64,000 nt of DNA, taken from Candidatus Latescibacterota bacterium (GTDB lineage: Bacteria > Latescibacterota > UBA2968 > UBA8231). Positions 48,710 through 57,662 of this stretch are shown piece after piece. Each line of letters opens with the position of its first letter. Position 1 is the stretch's first letter. A model generated the notes under the pieces. The model was given only the letters and a program-made list of their open reading frames with translations, was not told the origin of the DNA and ran no database searches. The position numbers were made by a program, and so were the translations under genes. The stretch covers positions 2,304,001 through 2,368,000 of the forward strand of contig CBDFJF010000001.1 in the NCBI GenBank assembly GCA_965248265.1, in the 5' to 3' direction.

Positions 48710-49802
48710 CGCCGCCCTCGAAACCAAAATCGCCCAGCTGTTGCTGGTGGGATTCAGGGGTTTCGACCGGACGGGCGCTGCCGGCATCATGGATGATATC
48801 GCCGAACGCAGTCTTGGTGGGGTCGTCCTCTTTGACATCGACGGTCCAAGCGGGCAACCGCAGCGCAACGTCGCCTCCGTTGAGCAAGTGCGGGCGTTGA
48901 CGTGCGACCTCCAGGCCGCCGGTTCCCAGGCGTCCGCCGCTTTCCAGGAGTCCACCGTCGTCTATGGACCAACGCCACCCCTTCTCATCGCCGCCGATCA
49001 GGAGGGCGGACAGGTCCGCCGCTTCAAGGAGCGCCACGGCTTCCCAATGGCATCCCCCGCCCAGAAGCTGGGCAGGCGCAACGATCTCAATGCCACCCTC
49101 GAGGAGGCAACCTCCATGGCCCGGTCACTGGCTGACTGCGGTGTCAACCTCAACCTGGCCCCCGTCGTCGATCTCGACACCAATCCCGCTAATCCCGTCA
49201 TCGGCCAGAAGCAGCGCAGCTATTCTGACAATCCCGAGGTCGTCACTGCTCACGCCTCCGCATTCATTCAGGCTCACTACAAGGAAGGAGTCTGCTGCGC
49301 CCTCAAGCACTTTCCGGGGCACGGTAGCTCCGACGCTGACACCCATACCGGATTTACCGACGTCACGCAAACATGGAGCGAAGTCGAGCTCCGCCCCTTT
49401 GAGCAGCTCATACAGGACGGCCTGGCGGCTGCAGTGATGACGGCCCATGTATTCAACGCTCGATTGGATGCTCGGTGGCCGGCAACCTTGTCCCACGCTA
49501 CCATCACGGACCTGTTGCGCAGGCGCCTCGAATTCAACGGGGTCGTCATCTCCGACGATCTGGGCATGGGTGCGATCGCCGGCCGGTACGGACGGCGGCA
49601 AGCACTGGAATTGGCACTGCTCGCTGGTGTTGATGTACTGTGCCTTTGCAACCAGACGACCTACGAGGAAGATCTCGTCGAACGTGTGATCGAAGATATC
49701 GGCTCCCTTGTCTCCTCTGGCAGCGTGGAGGAAGAGCGAATTGACGAAGCCTATGCGAGGGTGCTGCGATTGAAGAGCTCATTGAGCCCATGCCCAGAAT
49801 AG
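48654..49802 (+). CDS. GH3 beta-N-acetylhexosaminidase (NagZ-like)
   Basis: DQEGG, NLAPVVD, KHFPGHG..DTH and SDDLGMGA motifs; start uncertain. Confidence 0.9.
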   Translation: MTPSEKRPIPPTLPLKPADAALETKIAQLLLVGFRGFDRTGAAGIMDDIAERSLGGVVLFDIDGPSGQPQRNVASVEQVRALTCDLQAAGSQASAAFQESTVVYGPTPPLLIAADQEGGQVRRFKERHGFPMASPAQKLGRRNDLNATLEEATSMARSLADCGVNLNLAPVVDLDTNPANPVIGQKQRSYSDNPEVVTAHASAFIQAHYKEGVCCALKHFPGHGSSDADTHTGFTDVTQTWSEVELRPFEQLIQDGLAAAVMTAHVFNARLDARWPATLSHATITDLLRRRLEFNGVVISDDLGMGAIAGRYGRRQALELALLAGVDVLCLCNQTTYEEDLVERVIEDIGSLVSSGSVEEERIDEAYARVLRLKSSLSPCPE

Positions 49803-50389
49803 AGACCATACCGTACTCGCGAGCTTCCGGATTCTTGAAACAGCAGTACGACGCTGCAATCGAACGTGGTGGACGCATCTGGAACATCGTCAGCATCATG
49901 AGCCAGAATCCGCGGGTATTGAAGGCGTCGATGGATTTCTATCGTGCTCTCATGCACGCTTCCTCTCCATCATCATTGAGCAGGTGCCAGAGAGAGATGA
50001 TCGCCGTCGTCGTTTCCGCCACCAACCATTGCGTCTACTGAATACGCGCGCACGCCCACGACCTCCGTGCCGAGGTCGAAGACGAGTATGGGTTGAAGGA
50101 CAGCGAGGCCGATCGCTTCGTGCATGCGATAGCCAGGAACTGGCACGAGGCTCAACTGTCCCCTCAGAACCTCGGCTTGTGTGTTTTTGCCGAACAGCTG
50201 ACCCGCGATCCATCCAGCGTTGGCGATCCGGAAATTCGAGCGTTGCGGGACTGCGGCTTCGAAGATGTGGCCATCCATGACGCCACTCAAATCATCGGTT
50301 ACTTCAACTACATCAACCGGGTCGCCGATGCCCTGGACGTGGAGGACGAGGCGTTCGTGAGAGAGTGGGAGGCCGAGTCCGAATCGTGA
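49790..50389 (+). CDS. AhpD/CMD-like peroxidase-related selenoprotein (CxxU), 199 aa
   Basis: ORFs 49790-50041 and 50093-50389 share a frame. Read-through gives REMIAVVVSATNHCVY-U-IRAHAHDLR...FNYINRVADAL; a SECIS-like hairpin follows the UGA. Confidence 0.88.
50059..50078 (+). promoter_or_regulatory. Bacterial SECIS-like hairpin
   Basis: CGACCTC-CGTGCC-GAGGTCG, starting 17 nt after UGA, with G at loop position 2 followed by U. Confidence 0.75.
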
Positions 50390-51445: not shown

Positions 51446-52415
51446 ACTGACCTACTCCGAAGCCACACTCGAAGCACTGTCGGAGGAGATGGCGGCTGAC
51501 CCGACGACTTTCGTCGTTGGCCAGGGCATCGGAGCTCGAGGCGGCAACTTCAACACCACGACCGGCCTTCACGCCCTCTACGGCGACATGCGCCTGCGCG
51601 ACGTCGGAATCTACGAACGCGGATTCACCGGCATGTGCGCGAGTGCGGCCATGACGGGATCGCGCCCGATCGTCGACTACATGATGTTGGATTTCGCCCT
51701 AGACGCCATGGGGGAGATACTCAACCAGATCGCCAAGATCCAGTACATGAGCAGCGGCCGCTTGAAAATGCCGATCGTCCTGCGCGCCTGTATCGGACTC
51801 GGAGGGTCAATGGCAACTCATCACTCGGGCAACTACTACTCATTTTTTGTAAACCATCCCGGTTTTCGGGTCGCCTTGCCGACGACGCCGGCAGATGCCA
51901 AGGGACTTCTGAAGAGTGCCATCCGCAGCGACGACCCCGTGCTCTTTCTGGAGCACAGATTACTGTTGAAGACGGTGGGCGCCGTCCCTGAGGGAGGGGA
52001 CGCCATCCCCTTCGGCGAAGCGGCGGTGCGCACCCAGGGCAATGATGCGACCGTCGTCGCATTGACGGCGATGGTCCAGCAATGTGTTGAGGTGAGCACG
52101 GCCTTGGCGACGGACGGAATCTCCGTCGAAGTCATCGATCCACGCACCGTGGCTCCTCTCGACATGGACACCATACTCGCCTCCGTGCGCAAAACAGGCC
52201 GTCTGCTCATCGTCGACGAGAGCTTCGGCCCGTGTGGAGTCGGAGCCGAAATCGCCACTCGCGTGGTGGAGGAGGCCTTCGACGACCTCAAGGCCCCGAT
52301 CAAGCGTCTGAACGGTGCTCACGTGCCCATGCCGTACAGCGCCCCGCTGGAAACGGCCGCGATACCGCAACAGGAGCAGATCGCCACCGCCGTTCGCGAC
52401 CTGCTCGCAGTGTAG
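51438..52415 (+). CDS. TPP-dependent dehydrogenase E1 beta subunit
   Basis: DAKGLLKSAIRSDDPVLFLEH and EVIDPRTVAPLD motifs. Confidence 0.93.
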   Translation: MRELTYSEATLEALSEEMAADPTTFVVGQGIGARGGNFNTTTGLHALYGDMRLRDVGIYERGFTGMCASAAMTGSRPIVDYMMLDFALDAMGEILNQIAKIQYMSSGRLKMPIVLRACIGLGGSMATHHSGNYYSFFVNHPGFRVALPTTPADAKGLLKSAIRSDDPVLFLEHRLLLKTVGAVPEGGDAIPFGEAAVRTQGNDATVVALTAMVQQCVEVSTALATDGISVEVIDPRTVAPLDMDTILASVRKTGRLLIVDESFGPCGVGAEIATRVVEEAFDDLKAPIKRLNGAHVPMPYSAPLETAAIPQQEQIATAVRDLLAV

Positions 52416-52432
52416 CCTGCCGGATTTTATCC

Positions 52433-53197
52433 ATGCCTGATGCTGTAAGCTTGAGACTCGACGACAAGATTGTCGCCATCACCGGCGGTGCGACCGGCAT
52501 CGGCGCCGCCTGCGTAGAGCTGTTCGCCGAGCGCGGCGCCACGGTGTTTGTCCTTGACTGCAACAGTGAAGAGGGTGCTTCCACCGTCGGCCGCGTTACA
52601 TCGGCCGGGGGAAAGGCCTCGTTCCACCAACTTGACGTGCGGTCCGATTCAGCGGTCAGATCAGCCTTCGGAGAAATTGAGAATGAGCATGGAAGGTTGG
52701 ACGCTCTGGTCTGTTGCGCCGGGGTGATCAAGGGCGCGTATCGCGGTATCAACGAACTCGCCGAGCAGGACTGGGACGCCACCCTCGATACCAACCTCAA
52801 GGGTACCTACCTGACCGCCAAATATGGTTCGCCATTGCTGATCAAGGGAGTGAACCCGGTCCTTCTGCTGATATCCTCAGGTGCCGGCGTGCACGGGGGC
52901 AGCTCGTCCTATGCCTACGCCGCCAGCAAGGCTGGCATGCACGGCATGCATTTCAATCTGGAGCACGAACTCGAGCCTCACGGTGTCCGGGTTCACGTTA
53001 TCTGCCCTGCCAGCATTGCGACCCCGCTCAAACTGGCCAACATCGGCCTAGCTGCCCAGGAGAAAGGCGAAGACGCCCAAGCCGCCATGGATGAGGCCAG
53101 GCAAAGGCTTGGGGAGCCCGTGGGGGTGGCACGGGTGTTGTGTTTTCTGGTGTCGGAAGAAGGATCCTACGTGCGGGGTACCGTCAGCACCCGTTGA
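52433..53197 (+). CDS. SDR oxidoreductase
   Basis: TGGATGIG and YAASK motifs; start at ATG 52433. Confidence 0.9.
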   Translation: MPDAVSLRLDDKIVAITGGATGIGAACVELFAERGATVFVLDCNSEEGASTVGRVTSAGGKASFHQLDVRSDSAVRSAFGEIENEHGRLDALVCCAGVIKGAYRGINELAEQDWDATLDTNLKGTYLTAKYGSPLLIKGVNPVLLLISSGAGVHGGSSSYAYAASKAGMHGMHFNLEHELEPHGVRVHVICPASIATPLKLANIGLAAQEKGEDAQAAMDEARQRLGEPVGVARVLCFLVSEEGSYVRGTVSTR

Positions 53198-53204
53198 GCG
53201 GGAG

Positions 53205-53316
53205 GAGTCGGACGGTGGCCCACTGTCAGCGCAGGGGCTGGTCTGACTCGGTGCGGCGCCAGACCAGGGAGCTATTCCCACCCCTTGCTGACGAGTGGGC
53301 CTTTGTCCGAACTCTG
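53205..53316 (-). ncRNA. Candidate sigma54-dependent structured small RNA (~110 nt)
   Basis: Nested helices GAGTTCGGAC/GTCCGACTC, GGCCCACT/AGTGGGCC, GTCAGC/GCTGAC and AGGGG/CCCCT close two inner hairpins. The 5' end coincides with the predicted sigma54 +1. Confidence 0.55.
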
Positions 53317-53326
53317 TTGCTGACTC

Positions 53327-53342
53327 AGCAAACGTCGCGCCA
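53327..53342 (-). promoter_or_regulatory. Sigma54 (-24/-12) promoter
   Basis: Minus strand TGGCGC-GACGT-TTGCT; exact GG-N10-GC spacing, near consensus TGGCAC-N5-TTGC. Confidence 0.8.
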
Positions 53343-53440
53343 CTTTCGATTCAATCAACAAAATTTATCTTAACTATCATATTTACAATACGATAAACTT
53401 ATTTCATTGATTCTGATGGCAGTGGTATTTGGAGTAGAAC

Positions 53441-53549
53441 TGCTGCGTTGTTGCGGCATGCCTGCTGGTGTTTTTCGGAGTAAACTCAATTTTTACAAAT
53501 AGATATGGAGAAATGCATCGAAGCAGCTTCATGCCGCACCAACGCAGCA
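53441..53549. promoter_or_regulatory. Pair of enhancer-like (bEBP UAS) sites in inverted orientation
   Basis: TGCTGCGTTGTTGCGGCATG (53441-53460) and CATGCCGCACCAACGCAGCA (53530-53549), a 19/20 inverted match; each is pseudo-palindromic TGCnGC-N6-GCnGCA. An AT-rich spacer lies toward the promoter. Confidence 0.7.
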
Positions 53550-53571
53550 CCCACGCCTGCAGGGTTGGGCC

Positions 53572-54963
53572 CTATCGGGTTCTGTATTCTTCTGATTGAA
53601 TATCGTGTTTTCGGAGTAGCCGCTGGAAGGAAGTCCGGTGTAGCCCGGCTTGGACCGCAGCCCGCGAAACATTGCCCTGTGTTGCCGTCAGCAGACCAGA
53701 CAAGTAGTCGCGCTCGAATCGGGCCTTGGCAGCTGCCAGAGTGGTGTCTCCCTCGTCACTGCCTGCTGCGTTGGCTACAGCCTGAGTTGCGATGGCAGCA
53801 GGTAGCGAGGCCAACGTGATGGGACCTGAGTCCGTCAGGGAAAAGGCCCCCTCGATCGCGTTGTGGAGTTCGCGCACGTTACCGGGCCAGTCGTACTGCG
53901 TAAGTGCTTTCATGGCTTCGGGAGCGATGCCATCCACCTTCCGCGTAGCGGCCTCGTTCAACTCCTTGACGAAGTGATCGGCCAGAAGTGGTACGTCGCC
54001 GTCGCGATCTCGTAGTGCAGGCAGGGAGATCGTGAGCACGTTGAGACGGTAGTAGAGATCCTGTCTGAACCGTCCCTCGGCCATCGCTTTGTCCAGATCC
54101 TCGTTCGTCGCCGATAGCAACCGCATGTCGATGTCGAGTGTTTCCGTTCCGCCGACCCGGCGCAACTGTCGCTCTTGAATCACCCGCAACAGTTTAACCT
54201 GCAGGTCGACGCTCAACGTGGCGATCTCGTCCAGGAACACCGTTCCGCCCTGGGCCGCCTCGAGCAAACCTGTCTTCCTCGTGAACGCTCCGGTGAACGC
54301 ACCCCGCTCGTGTCCGAACAACTCGCTTTCCAGCAGTTGATCCGGCATGGCACCGCAATCGATGGGCAGAAACGGAGCATCCGAACGCTTGCTGTTGACG
54401 TGGATGCTGCGGGCGATCAACTCCTTGCCGGTCCCGGTTTGGCCGAGTATGAGAATGCTGCTGTCGCTGTCTGCCAACCGTTGCACCAGGTCCATGACCT
54501 TTCCCATCGCCGCGCTGCGGGCGACGATACCGTCGAAACCCCTCCGAAACTTCAGGGCCCGTCGCAGCATCTCGTTCTCAGTGCTCAGACGCTTCTGGGC
54601 AAGCGCCCGATCGACGGTGATCAACAACTGATCCGGAGAAAACGGTTTTGGCAGGTAGTCGAAGGCTCCCTGCTTGACGGCCTCCACCGCCGTAGAGATT
54701 GTCGGAAATGCCGTCACCATGATCTTCACCAGGTTCTCGTCAATGCTGCGCAGTTCCTCGAGCACCTCGAGACCATCCTTGTCCGGCATCTTCAGATCGA
54801 GCAGCATTAGATCGAATGTCTGTTCACGAACAGCGGCGATGCCGCTATCGGGGGTATCGCGTAGACTGACGTCGTAGCCATGGTAACGGAGCGTCTCCTC
54901 GCAGGCCTCCAACATGGCGGGCTCGTCATCGACGATCAGGATCCTGGCTTTCGTTCGGGTCAA
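53572..54963 (-). CDS. NtrC-family sigma54-dependent response regulator
   Basis: Receiver domain, [31 protein letters not shown] and C-terminal HTH. Confidence 0.96.
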
Positions 54964-56246
54964 TCCGTCCTCATACCTTCGTTGGGACTTTCCTCAGTGG
55001 AGTCGCCCATGCCGGGCAAGCGCACGGTCATCGTCGTGCCGCGATGACGGACCGTTTCGACTTCGATTCGCCCTCCCAGCTTTTCCACTATGCCGTAGCT
55101 GACCGACAGTCCAAGGCCGGTCCCCTTTCCCACCTGTTTGGTGGTGAAAAAGGGGTCGAAAATGAGGTCCTTGAAATCGTCGGGAATGCCGTTACCGGTG
55201 TCGGTGACCTTGATGGTAACCATCTCGGTTACTCCGCCGTACTCAGCAGGTCCATCAGTCGTCGCCTCTGTACTGAGACTCAATGTTCCGCCCTCCGGCA
55301 TCGCGTCCACAGCGTTGTTGATCAGGTTGATGAGCACCTGCTCCAATTCGTTGGGATCCGCTTTCACCAGCAAAGGACGGGGGCACAGCTCGGTCTTGAA
55401 ATCGAGTCCGTTCGCGGACATCGCCCTGACCGACAGCGACTGCGCGACGCCGACAACCTCGTTGACGTCGATGGTCTGGGGAATCCCGGACGAGGGACGC
55501 GAGAAGCTCAAGAGATTCTCGACAATCTGATTGATGCGCGCCGTTTGTTCGACGGCCACCTGCAGTGTTGAGACCGCGCGGCTCGAAAGCGACTCCTCTT
55601 CGGCGATCGACAGCAGAAAGTTCAGCTTCATCAGAAGCACACCTGCCGGATTGTTGACCTCGTGAGCAACACCGGCTGCGAGCTTGCCCATGGCCGCCAT
55701 CTTCTCCGATTGGATCAGTTGTGCCTGGGCCAGGGCAAGCGCTCGAGTGCGTTCCTTGACCGTGTCTTCCAGATTCTCCGTGTAAGCACGCTTGGCTTCT
55801 TCCAACTCGGCTTCTGCCCGTCGCAGCACGGTGATGTCGATGATGACGGCCATGGTACCTTCGAAACTGCCGTCCGCTGCTGTGAGAGGAGACGCCGATA
55901 TCAGTGTCGTTAGCGGCGATCCGTTCTTGTGGTAGATGAACGTCTCGTAGTAGTTGCGCAACCCCTTCTGGCGGTGTTGCGTGTACTCCGCATAACGCTG
56001 GAACTCATCGGGGTCCGTGAGCTCGGACAGGCTCTTCCCCTGCAGCTCGTCCGCCTCATAACCCAGCATTTCACACAGGCCTGGATTGACGAACGTCAAA
56101 CGCTCGTCAGAGTCGGTCATGCTGATTCCCGCAAAGGCCGTTTCCACTAGAGCCCGGTAACGTTCCTGGCTCCGGCGCAACTGCTCTGCGATGCGCCGCC
56201 GTTCGCGAAGGGCGACCCCCAGTTTGGTGTTGTGTTCTTCAACCAT
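54960..56246 (-). CDS. Cytoplasmic PAS-domain histidine kinase
   Basis: PAS/PAC, AHEVNNP, NLINNAVDA, DTGNG and GTGLGL motifs; no TM helix. Confidence 0.95.
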   Translation of the reverse strand: MVEEHNTKLGVALRERRRIAEQLRRSQERYRALVETAFAGISMTDSDERLTFVNPGLCEMLGYEADELQGKSLSELTDPDEFQRYAEYTQHRQKGLRNYYETFIYHKNGSPLTTLISASPLTAADGSFEGTMAVIIDITVLRRAEAELEEAKRAYTENLEDTVKERTRALALAQAQLIQSEKMAAMGKLAAGVAHEVNNPAGVLLMKLNFLLSIAEEESLSSRAVSTLQVAVEQTARINQIVENLLSFSRPSSGIPQTIDVNEVVGVAQSLSVRAMSANGLDFKTELCPRPLLVKADPNELEQVLINLINNAVDAMPEGGTLSLSTEATTDGPAEYGGVTEMVTIKVTDTGNGIPDDFKDLIFDPFFTTKQVGKGTGLGLSVSYGIVEKLGGRIEVETVRHRGTTMTVRLPGMGDSTEESPNEGMRTD

Positions 56247-56468: not shown

Positions 56469-57662
56469 TTGCTGAAAAATGGACAAAAAGCCCGAAAAAA
56501 GACCACTTTGAAGCAGCCTTCCAGAAAAATCCGCCCGTGGTACACAGGTAAAACGCCCCCCGAAGAAGATGTAATAGGGATCGTCGACCGCATCGACCCT
56601 GATGCCCCCATACTCTATGACCAGGGACAAGAAGAGAACACGGGCGAGTACGCCGACGTCGTCAAGGAGCTGTACGGCAAGATGGATCTGCTCAAGCGCA
56701 GCCCGGACGAATTCCGCACGTGGACGGACGAAGACGGTTATCTGATTTTTTATGAAACACTGCTGGACTTCGCCGAGTCCGAAGTCAAGGACCGGGTTCA
56801 AGTCCTGCAGACCCTGGGAGCCTTTAAGTTCAGAGCTGCTGCTGGACCGGACGAAAAGAAAAGCCTGATCTCGGCCATCTTCACCGATGCCGACGACAAC
56901 GAAGACCCGAACATGGTCAACAGCACCAGAGCGCGGCGGCTGTCGCAGATCTGGTCTCCAGCATCTGATTCGCTTCTCGACTACATCATCTCCCGGCCGG
57001 CCCAGGCCGGACGCGTTCTCTCGGACCGCATCAGTCCGTCGAATCGCGAGCCGTTCCGCCTGATCGGCCATCCGTTCGCTGAAGTCCGCAGCACCGACCT
57101 GATGCCGCTGAAGGAAGCCAAGATCATAGCCTACGAGCGCGACGGGGAGATCCACCTCAACACCGGCGTCCGCACCGTCCTGGAAAACTGGGATCAGGAC
57201 ACCGCCGCTATCGGCGGCGTCGAGCAGGTTAGCCTGTTGGATACCCTGCTGCTACACGAGCTCATCGAACTGGTGTTAGACGAAACCAATCCGGAATACA
57301 CGCCCCTGCACTCGCACATCGTGGCCTGCTCCTTTGAACGCTACCTCAAAGGAACCTTGTTGTCCGTGGCCGTGGAGGACTTTTTCTTGACCTGGCCGCC
57401 AATGTCAGATGCGGAGATTGAAGAGCGGAACGCCAAGCAGATGGCTCAGGAACTCGAAGAAGCCAGCGCGATGTTTGCCGAAGAAGAGATCCCGGATATG
57501 GAAGATGAGGACCTGGACGGACTGCCCGTTGACAGCGATATCCGGCGCCGCAAGAAGAAAAAGAAGAAGAAAAAAATCTCTGGAGGGAAAGTCCCTGGAG
57601 AGAAAGTCCCTGAGGGGAAAGTCGTGAAGAAGAAGGTCAAGAAAAAGAAGAGAAGAGAGTGA
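56469..57662 (+). CDS. Hypothetical protein with an acidic stretch followed by a poly-Lys tail
   Basis: 397-codon ORF with host-like codons; LLHELIE motif; C-terminal RRRKKKKKKKK and three GKVP-like repeats; start uncertain. Confidence 0.75.
   Translation: MLKNGQKARKKTTLKQPSRKIRPWYTGKTPPEEDVIGIVDRIDPDAPILYDQGQEENTGEYADVVKELYGKMDLLKRSPDEFRTWTDEDGYLIFYETLLDFAESEVKDRVQVLQTLGAFKFRAAAGPDEKKSLISAIFTDADDNEDPNMVNSTRARRLSQIWSPASDSLLDYIISRPAQAGRVLSDRISPSNREPFRLIGHPFAEVRSTDLMPLKEAKIIAYERDGEIHLNTGVRTVLENWDQDTAAIGGVEQVSLLDTLLLHELIELVLDETNPEYTPLHSHIVACSFERYLKGTLLSVAVEDFFLTWPPMSDAEIEERNAKQMAQELEEASAMFAEEEIPDMEDEDLDGLPVDSDIRRRKKKKKKKKISGGKVPGEKVPEGKVVKKKVKKKKRRE

Follow-up and report, generated by a model that had tools for sequence, protein, structure and literature searches.

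The stretch of DNA analysed here (hereafter the window) comprises 64,000 nucleotides of contig CBDFJF010000001.1 from a Candidatus Latescibacterota bacterium. Two adjacent genes on its minus strand encode a sensor histidine kinase (HK) and an NtrC-type response regulator (RR). Behind the RR gene lie two activator sites, an AT-rich spacer, a predicted sigma54 promoter and a structured RNA with a three-way junction, followed by a convergent SDR gene (Table 1). Judged from comparison of sequences and predicted structures, this RNA is a member of an undescribed family that is absent from Rfam. An RNA linked to sigma54 and a response regulator had been proposed in an initial annotation of the window, and the core of this proposal is supported by the promoter, the activator sites and a junction with covariation at 11 loci.

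Table 1 Features of the RNA locus, with positions in the window.
Feature	Position	Strand	Description
Sensor histidine kinase (HK)	54960-56246	-	PAS, HisKA and HATPase_c domains
NtrC-type response regulator (RR), sigma54 activator	53572-54963	-	REC, Sigma54_activat (AAA+) and HTH_8 domains
UAS1, distal activator site	53530-53549		20 nt, dyad type TGCCGCA-N4-TGCGGCA
UAS2, proximal activator site	53441-53460		20 nt, inverted match to UAS1 at 19/20 positions; lies some 100 bp before -24
AT-rich spacer	53343-53440		98 bp, 28.6% GC vs 60.4% for the window; one AATCAA core per strand
Sigma54 promoter TGGCGCGACGTTTGCT	53327-53342	-	-24 GG at 53341/53340, -12 GC at 53329/53328; predicted +1 near 53316
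Rod RNA with three-way junction	53205-53314	-	110 nt; covariance-model core at 53217-53301
P2 hairpin GGGAAUAGCUCCC	53279-53267	-	Part of the rod RNA
Invariant P3 loop motif CGCACCGAG	near 53255-53247	-	Part of the rod RNA
3' tail of the RNA	53162-53204	-	Overlaps the SDR gene end in antisense by about 35 nt; covered by RNA-library contigs
SDR gene	52232-53197	+	Convergent, at the end of the E1alpha-E1beta-SDR row; downstream boundary also conserved among relatives

The HK and RR genes overlap by 4 nt. Their best NCBIfam matches are AtoS and AtoC, respectively, and because both scores fall far below the equivalog cut-offs, we regard the two proteins as generic members of that class. The source genome contains one copy of rpoN (211 bits). 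No protein gene follows the promoter, and the next gene is the convergent SDR gene with its stop codon at 53197, as had been described. The only open reading frame (ORF) at the RNA, located at 53048-53281 (77 amino acids), overlaps the SDR gene in antisense. The product of the locus was judged to be non-coding: indels in the relatives are not multiples of three, and conservation tracks the base pairs.

The upstream elements in the initial annotation, namely two enhancer-like sites, a spacer with AATCAA cores and a near-consensus sigma54 promoter on the minus strand, were all recovered. The arms of UAS1 and UAS2 are 95% complementary, and the dyad reading of each arm was made by eye. The same dyad type occurs behind orthologous RR genes, where it was read in every upstream region printed for related loci. 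The AT-rich spacer is a possible bending site, at which IHF might play a role. Within the window, TGGCGCGACGTTTGCT is the sole match to the sigma54 motif, and the pattern GG-N10-GC is kept upstream of the RNA at all 11 related loci.

To estimate the size of the regulon, the source genome was scanned for pairs of dyads with at most one mismatch in the 10-nt core and a distance of 40-200 bp. There were 28 such pairs. When a strict sigma54 motif was required within 500 bp of the pair, only the pair at the RNA locus was retained. A stricter scan of the source genome for a 14-nt dyad found no other pair with this spacing, and one other close pair, with its sites 20 bp apart, on contig C2. This crude estimate suggests that the RNA promoter is the main or only target of the two-component system. 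An apparent single-target system of this kind would be a simple case for heterologous reconstitution.

The predicted folding energy of the rod is -74.9 kcal/mol on the minus strand (z = -7.3) and -77.7 kcal/mol on the plus strand (z = -6.1). The usual sigma54 spacing puts the transcription start near 53316 and the first base pair of the rod is at 53314, in agreement with the earlier prediction of a start about 2 nt from the base of a three-way-junction rod of about 110 nt. It had also been cautioned that more G-U pairs form on the plus strand. This caveat did not hold across the family, where pairing favours the promoter strand (199 vs 185 of 230 cells), and where comparison of the promoter strand with its complement gave 19 G-U against 5 A-C. 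The pairing bias, the orientation of the promoter and the terminators of the relatives together establish that the RNA strand is the minus strand of the window. The rod is single-copy by BLAST in the 7.3-Mb source genome and each genome gave one covariance-model match; hence it is not a dispersed multicopy repeat. In Rfam 15, no family reached its gathering threshold in the window, where the best matches were P11 (16.1 bits; threshold 70) and MIR171_2 (16.7 bits; threshold 65), and six related loci gave none but chance-level matches.

A BLAST search of 40 related genomes with the 378-bp intergenic region produced no match, and homologues of the RNA surfaced only via synteny and covariance models. 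Orthologues of the RR (58-71% identity) led to the same arrangement in relatives: behind the RR genes of G011 and G019 come dyad sites, then a TGGCAC-N5-TTGC promoter and a sequence with the same three-way junction. A covariance model of the core (R1) matched 6 of the 76 genomes of the taxonomic family, representing 4 of its 18 genera. The same six genomes were matched by a second model (R2) among 151 genomes sampled from the phylum, and the 'order' genome set was identical to the 76 genomes of the family and added nothing. A motif scan of metagenome contigs returned 50 stretches, of which 12 match R2. In a looser pattern scan of genome contigs, one of the 80 loci among the matches listed was real according to R1 (G086); another 11 of these 80, with R1 E values of 0.03-0.7, were treated as chance. 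In total, 18 matches with 10 distinct core sequences were obtained from genomes and marine metagenomes, and we grouped them by identical scores and neighbours into 11 loci. Wherever the contig reaches, an RR orthologue or its remains lies upstream of the RNA. The literature on formamidase riboswitches and sigma54-dependent small RNAs contained no such RNA that we could find.

Among the 10 distinct sequences, 86.5% of the cells are paired, compared to 33-53% in slid controls. Compensatory changes on both sides were found in 10 of the 23 core pairs, and the covariation score was reached by none of 500 shuffles. The two signs of conservation that the initial annotation had suggested looking for behind orthologous RR genes, covariation and a -24/-12 promoter, are thus both present, the latter at 11 of 11 loci. 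P1, P3 and the outer rod covary. P2 is invariant (GGGA/UCCC, with a loop starting with AU), and so is the P3 loop motif CGCACCGA. In our own reading of the alignment, the three-way junction has 0-2 unpaired nucleotides.

The window RNA, described initially as a rod of about 110 nt, is a shortened form of an RNA that at 8 of the 11 loci is about 250-330 nt long and runs 150-250 nt past the rod, with three more conserved hairpins. One of these has the loop ACCACCCUU and another, H3, the loop ACAGGCC, and two of the three extra hairpins have C-rich loops. The last hairpin is GC-rich and terminator-like, with the loop GCCCUC, and has behind it a U-tract that varies in quality (U7-U8 in G011 and L204). 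Compensatory changes were found in 30 of the 77 predicted pairs in an alignment of seven long forms.

At 6 of the 11 loci, the RNA is followed by a same-strand gene encoding an FmdA_AmdA-family amidase (Pfam E = 8.6e-37) and then by the convergent SDR gene. No amidase lies behind the RNA at the other five (the window, L180, L171, G011 and L172), of which G011 and L172 retain the full long form with the terminator-like hairpin. In G019, G085, G086 and G088, the RNA-linked amidases have no other close homologue, and no homologue was found in G011 (84% complete). The source genome has their counterpart elsewhere, a 68%-identical amidase without the RNA. At this locus (L046; G000:C1:1241061-1244939) the amidase gene lies 14 nt behind the gene for a 344-aa pyridoxal-phosphate (PLP)-dependent enzyme, which by eye resembles cysteine desulfhydrase or 1-aminocyclopropane-1-carboxylate (ACC) deaminase. 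Neither the RNA nor a proper sigma54 promoter was found there; the upstream sequence TGGCAC-N5-TTCC is weak, lacks the -12 GC and was not counted as a sigma54 promoter.

We used a tree of 16 RR sequences, from which six duplicates and the 74-residue L172 fragment were left out, to compare the loci. All loci with the RNA belong to a single clade (91/93) with three branches, namely G011, the window with L180 and L171 (100/99), and the amidase-bearing clade (98/97). Because of this three-way split, the tree does not tell amidase loss from gain. The long form is common to G011 and the amidase clade, which implies that the short form of the window is derived. By this comparison, the amidase is not at the locus in the window lineage and the 3' two-thirds of the RNA is gone.

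The short form is strongly conserved nonetheless. Between the window and L171, the RNA core is identical at 83 of 85 positions and the upstream intergenic DNA at 115 of 219. The RR proteins of the two are 77% identical, with 83, 92 and 51% identity at the three codon positions; for E1beta these values are 85%, and 90, 93 and 57%. Of the two changes in the L171 core, one replaces a G-C pair by G-U and the other is found beside the junction. In L180, whose RR is 94% identical, the core is identical to that of the window. Both relatives keep the -24/-12 elements and both dyads. The anti-Shine-Dalgarno-like stretch CUCCUCCC that had been pointed out at the 3' base of the rod is present at 53207-53200, but it is not conserved in these two closest relatives, where the stretch after the rod is not kept. 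With a core at 83/85 against third codon positions at 51-57%, the short form is under selection and a decaying remnant is very unlikely. At the level of sequence, the comparison demonstrates purifying selection on the short RNA core.

RNA libraries were examined over 1.2 kb around the RNA (53000-54200). Two metatranscriptome runs labelled as seawater, from different studies, each provided one short contig. Contig X1 (151 nt) covers 53204-53316 and continues with letters like those of the L180 version, and contig X2 (190 nt) covers 53162-53347 with 14 differences. Over the rest of the SDR and RR genes, cover by RNA libraries consists of one 32-nt conserved AAA+ motif only, where stretches without such cover are no evidence of silence. 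Runs of the DNA type cover the whole 1.2 kb. To a limited extent, this pattern fits a small, relatively abundant RNA.

We consider it somewhat better than an even bet that the window RNA is a stand-alone regulatory RNA that depends on sigma54 and the RR, in an arrangement like that of NrsZ and CrcZ. The adjacent PAS kinase would phosphorylate the adjacent NtrC-type RR, which would then bind the two dyads about 100 and 190 bp upstream of the promoter and activate sigma54 RNA polymerase at the -24/-12 promoter. The resulting minus-strand RNA would extend from about 53316 to 53165, starting 2-3 nt before the rod that carries the three-way junction. The invariant P3 loop and the P2 hairpin would contact mRNA or protein. 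In the lineage of the window, the short rod most likely works alone as a regulatory RNA. The promoter logic follows well-established sigma54 biology, from which we infer the dependence on the RR and sigma54; where exactly the transcript starts and ends, and that it acts in trans, are likewise predictions. A stand-alone RNA is favoured because the short form is kept without a downstream gene and without a terminator, and because two amidase-less long forms keep their terminators, as an RNA gene would. In the relatives, the RNA may serve both as a leader and as a stand-alone RNA.

Several observations weigh against this interpretation. The sigma54 motif alone is not significant, as at least one match occurred in 17 of 100 shuffles of the window, and the whole genome has 30 matches compared to 20 for a reversed-motif control. 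What gives the promoter weight is where it lies and that relatives conserve it. The RNA contigs are short (151 and 190 nt), low-depth, unstranded and about read-sized, without exact ends, and X2 reaches 30 nt upstream of the predicted start. On the minus strand, the RNA copy of the window has no recognisable terminator, and the absence of a U-tract that had been noted as a caveat is confirmed. Hfq was not found in the source genome (92% complete). When the P3 loop was scanned for duplexes with 10,892 crude start regions, no target stood above background, and the scores of the neighbouring genes and the relocated amidase operon were close to the mean. We set this target prediction aside as uninformative, in view of the crude ORF calling, the GC-rich genome and top matches off credible start sites. 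Lastly, the amidase gene begins 20-110 nt after the terminator-like hairpin at 6 of the 11 loci, and no promoter-like sequence was noticed before these genes, where no promoter scan was run. The RNA may thus be primarily a cis-acting leader.

Other modes of action were considered and rejected. CsrA is present in the source genome, and the RNA has no array of GGA loops; a role as CsrA sponge was dismissed, as two of the long forms, L204 and L193, have no GGA in their conserved 5' motif. A likeness of the P3 loop to a half-site of the activator sites is not kept in G011.

A cis-acting attenuator is the main rival of the stand-alone RNA, although we regard it as unlikely. According to this explanation, the junction senses a ligand or protein and gates the terminator-like hairpin before the amidase gene, and the sensor in the window persists because it still binds that ligand or protein, acting for example as a decoy. 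At 6 of the 11 loci, a promoter is indeed followed by the structured RNA, a GC-rich hairpin and then the amidase. The loop of the hairpin is conserved and its stem shows compensatory changes, the start codon in G086 lies about 20 nt behind this hairpin, and the RNA-linked amidases have no close homologues elsewhere in their genomes. However, 5 of the 11 loci keep the RNA without the amidase, and the window form is 98% conserved though it has neither a terminator nor a downstream gene. Unlike the RNA at six related loci, the window RNA is not in the 5' untranslated region of any same-strand gene. A small-molecule pocket at the junction is unlikely with 0-2 unpaired nucleotides, and no Rfam family matches. 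The junction is conserved, sensor-like and supported by covariation, and the terminator-like platform occurs in the long forms only. No alternative antiterminator pairing was identified by eye. One candidate, pairing of the P3 loop with an arm of the terminator, appeared possible by eye in G019 and was dropped, as it is not possible in the g18 genomes or G011. A variant of this explanation, which we consider doubtful, is that the junction is the sensor of a new attenuator class, which gates sigma54 read-through into the amidase gene and has been kept as a free RNA in the window lineage. If true, amidase expression would need both a two-component signal and an RNA-sensed signal, and the family would document a transition from leader to small RNA.

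Antisense action, which the initial annotation had named as an alternative for the E1alpha-E1beta-SDR operon, or transcriptional interference is a less probable alternative to the stand-alone RNA, and we give it little credence. Here, an unterminated sigma54 transcript would enter the convergent SDR-E1beta-E1alpha operon in antisense and lower its expression. This would agree with the lack of a minus-strand terminator, with RNA-library contigs that extend 25-35 nt past the SDR stop codon, and with the fact that the amidase-less clade is the one with E1alpha-E1beta beside the SDR gene. Yet G011, which has the same convergent operon, has a strong terminator (hairpin and U7) before it. Interference also leaves the loop invariance and the covariation of the rod unexplained, and the contigs, although short, reach no further into the SDR gene.

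We find it very improbable that promoter and rod are an orphaned remnant without present function, left after deletion of the amidase operon. In line with the initial annotation, which had named a protein gene at this promoter in relatives as a sign of a deletion remnant, six of the 11 loci indeed carry the amidase there. Furthermore, the window has lost 150-200 nt at the 3' end of the RNA, including the terminator-like hairpin, and the amidase orthologue is found elsewhere in its genome, behind the PLP-enzyme gene. A remnant does not follow from this, since the core is 83/85 identical to that of L171 at a divergence where neutral sites have fallen to about 51-57%, and since L171 and L180 retain the -24/-12 elements as well as the two dyads. 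Moreover, it does not follow from the RR tree that the amidase was present ancestrally. Finally, a purely structural element, such as a repeat or a terminator of the SDR operon that works in both directions, is extremely improbable. The plus-strand fold is good too (z = -6.1), and the rod sits right behind the SDR stop codon and has a short UUUGU after it. However, the rod is single-copy, its loops are invariant, the G-U pairs favour the minus strand, and the rod and the end of the SDR gene are kept apart by the remainder of the long RNA at 8 of the 11 loci, at six of them also by the amidase gene.

Several further loci illustrate how the region behind the RR gene varies. At L036 (5900-6130, minus strand) and L037 of genus g14 (G024 and G013), dyads of the same type lie behind the RR orthologue, together with the sigma54 promoter TGGCATGCGCTTTGCC. 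A different conserved stretch of about 117 nt (87% identical between the two), present in 2 of 31 g14 genomes, follows this promoter, and then unrelated genes; this stretch and the g18 long forms have the motif GGAUCGUAA in common. In another family of the class (L039; G026), dyad-like sites, a GGCACAGGCATTGCC promoter and a GC-rich structured leader lie 370-700 nt behind the RR stop codon, with a possible 28-codon hydrophobic ORF after the leader. The RR orthogroup seems always to carry a target promoter directly behind its own gene. In G011 (L035, 5087-6256, minus strand), the HK gene and the first 83 or so RR codons are replaced by an ORF of 389 aa, which by its sequence resembles an IS30-type transposase, leaving a REC-less 365-aa activator ORF before an intact long RNA. 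On the metagenome contig L205 (2760-3300, minus strand), the HK-RR pair is reduced to fused PAS, AAA+ and HTH fragments; still present are a single dyad, a TGGTAC-N5-TTGC promoter, the RNA with its three-way junction and the gene for the amidase.

Divergent from the HK gene, the window encodes a 397-aa protein (56469-57662, plus strand) with a long lysine-rich tail at its C-terminal end, found at the same position in G019, G011 and L205. It matched no Pfam or NCBIfam family, and its Atlas matches were weak (0.81 or lower). A CMD/AhpD-like ORF at 49790-50389 on the plus strand (Pfam CMD, E = 2e-10) has one in-frame TGA at the second cysteine of a CxxC-type motif (HCVY-TGA). It probably encodes a selenoprotein, which would be 199 aa long if the TGA is read as selenocysteine; a 7-bp hairpin 21 nt after the TGA is not statistically special. 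Elsewhere in the source genome (G000), an ORF of 203 codons occurs in at least seven copies (e.g. C1:169029, C1:841885 and C2:1090841), which agree fully over a 61-nt start region, and is probably an insertion sequence.

The family adds to the known regulatory RNAs one that is absent from Rfam, comes from an uncultured marine lineage, is supported by covariation and has a clear regulatory input. As it comprises a long, terminator-bearing form before an enzyme gene and a short, free form under selection, conversion between leader and small RNA becomes testable. To our knowledge, sigma54-dependent small RNAs encoded beside their activators come almost only from Proteobacteria and Myxococcus. CrcZ behind cbrB in Pseudomonas, Qrr with LuxO in Vibrio and GlmY with GlrR in enterobacteria are sigma54-dependent small RNAs activated by NtrC-family proteins and located near the activator gene. 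They act by sequestration of Hfq/Crc, by Hfq-dependent pairing and as a RapZ decoy, respectively. The window RNA resembles these three systems in its sigma54 promoter and the adjacent gene for an NtrC-family activator, whereas the RNA itself is unrelated. It also differs from them in that no Hfq was found in the source genome and that its long relatives precede a protein gene. Some leader or riboswitch RNAs have an additional role in trans, for example SreA/SreB and EutX/Rli55. Like these, the family has a structured 5' RNA that ends in a terminator upstream of a gene and may exist free; unlike these, it has a sigma54 promoter, and in the window both the downstream gene and the terminator are missing.

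The closest parallel in arrangement is NrsZ of Pseudomonas aeruginosa. NrsZ is a small RNA dependent on sigma54 and NtrBC, encoded between ntrC and a tail-to-tail gene, and it consists of three repeated stem-loop modules and is processed (PMC4253122). A likeness of the H3 loop ACAGGCC to the NrsZ loop motif ACAGGCAG was taken as coincidence. By Rfam scans of the window and of six related loci, the two RNAs have no homology in sequence or structure, and that of the window is a truncated rod with a three-way junction. Nevertheless, they share (PMC4253122) a promoter of the TGGCAC-N5-TTGC type, an adjacent two-component system and a multi-hairpin RNA with conserved loop motifs.

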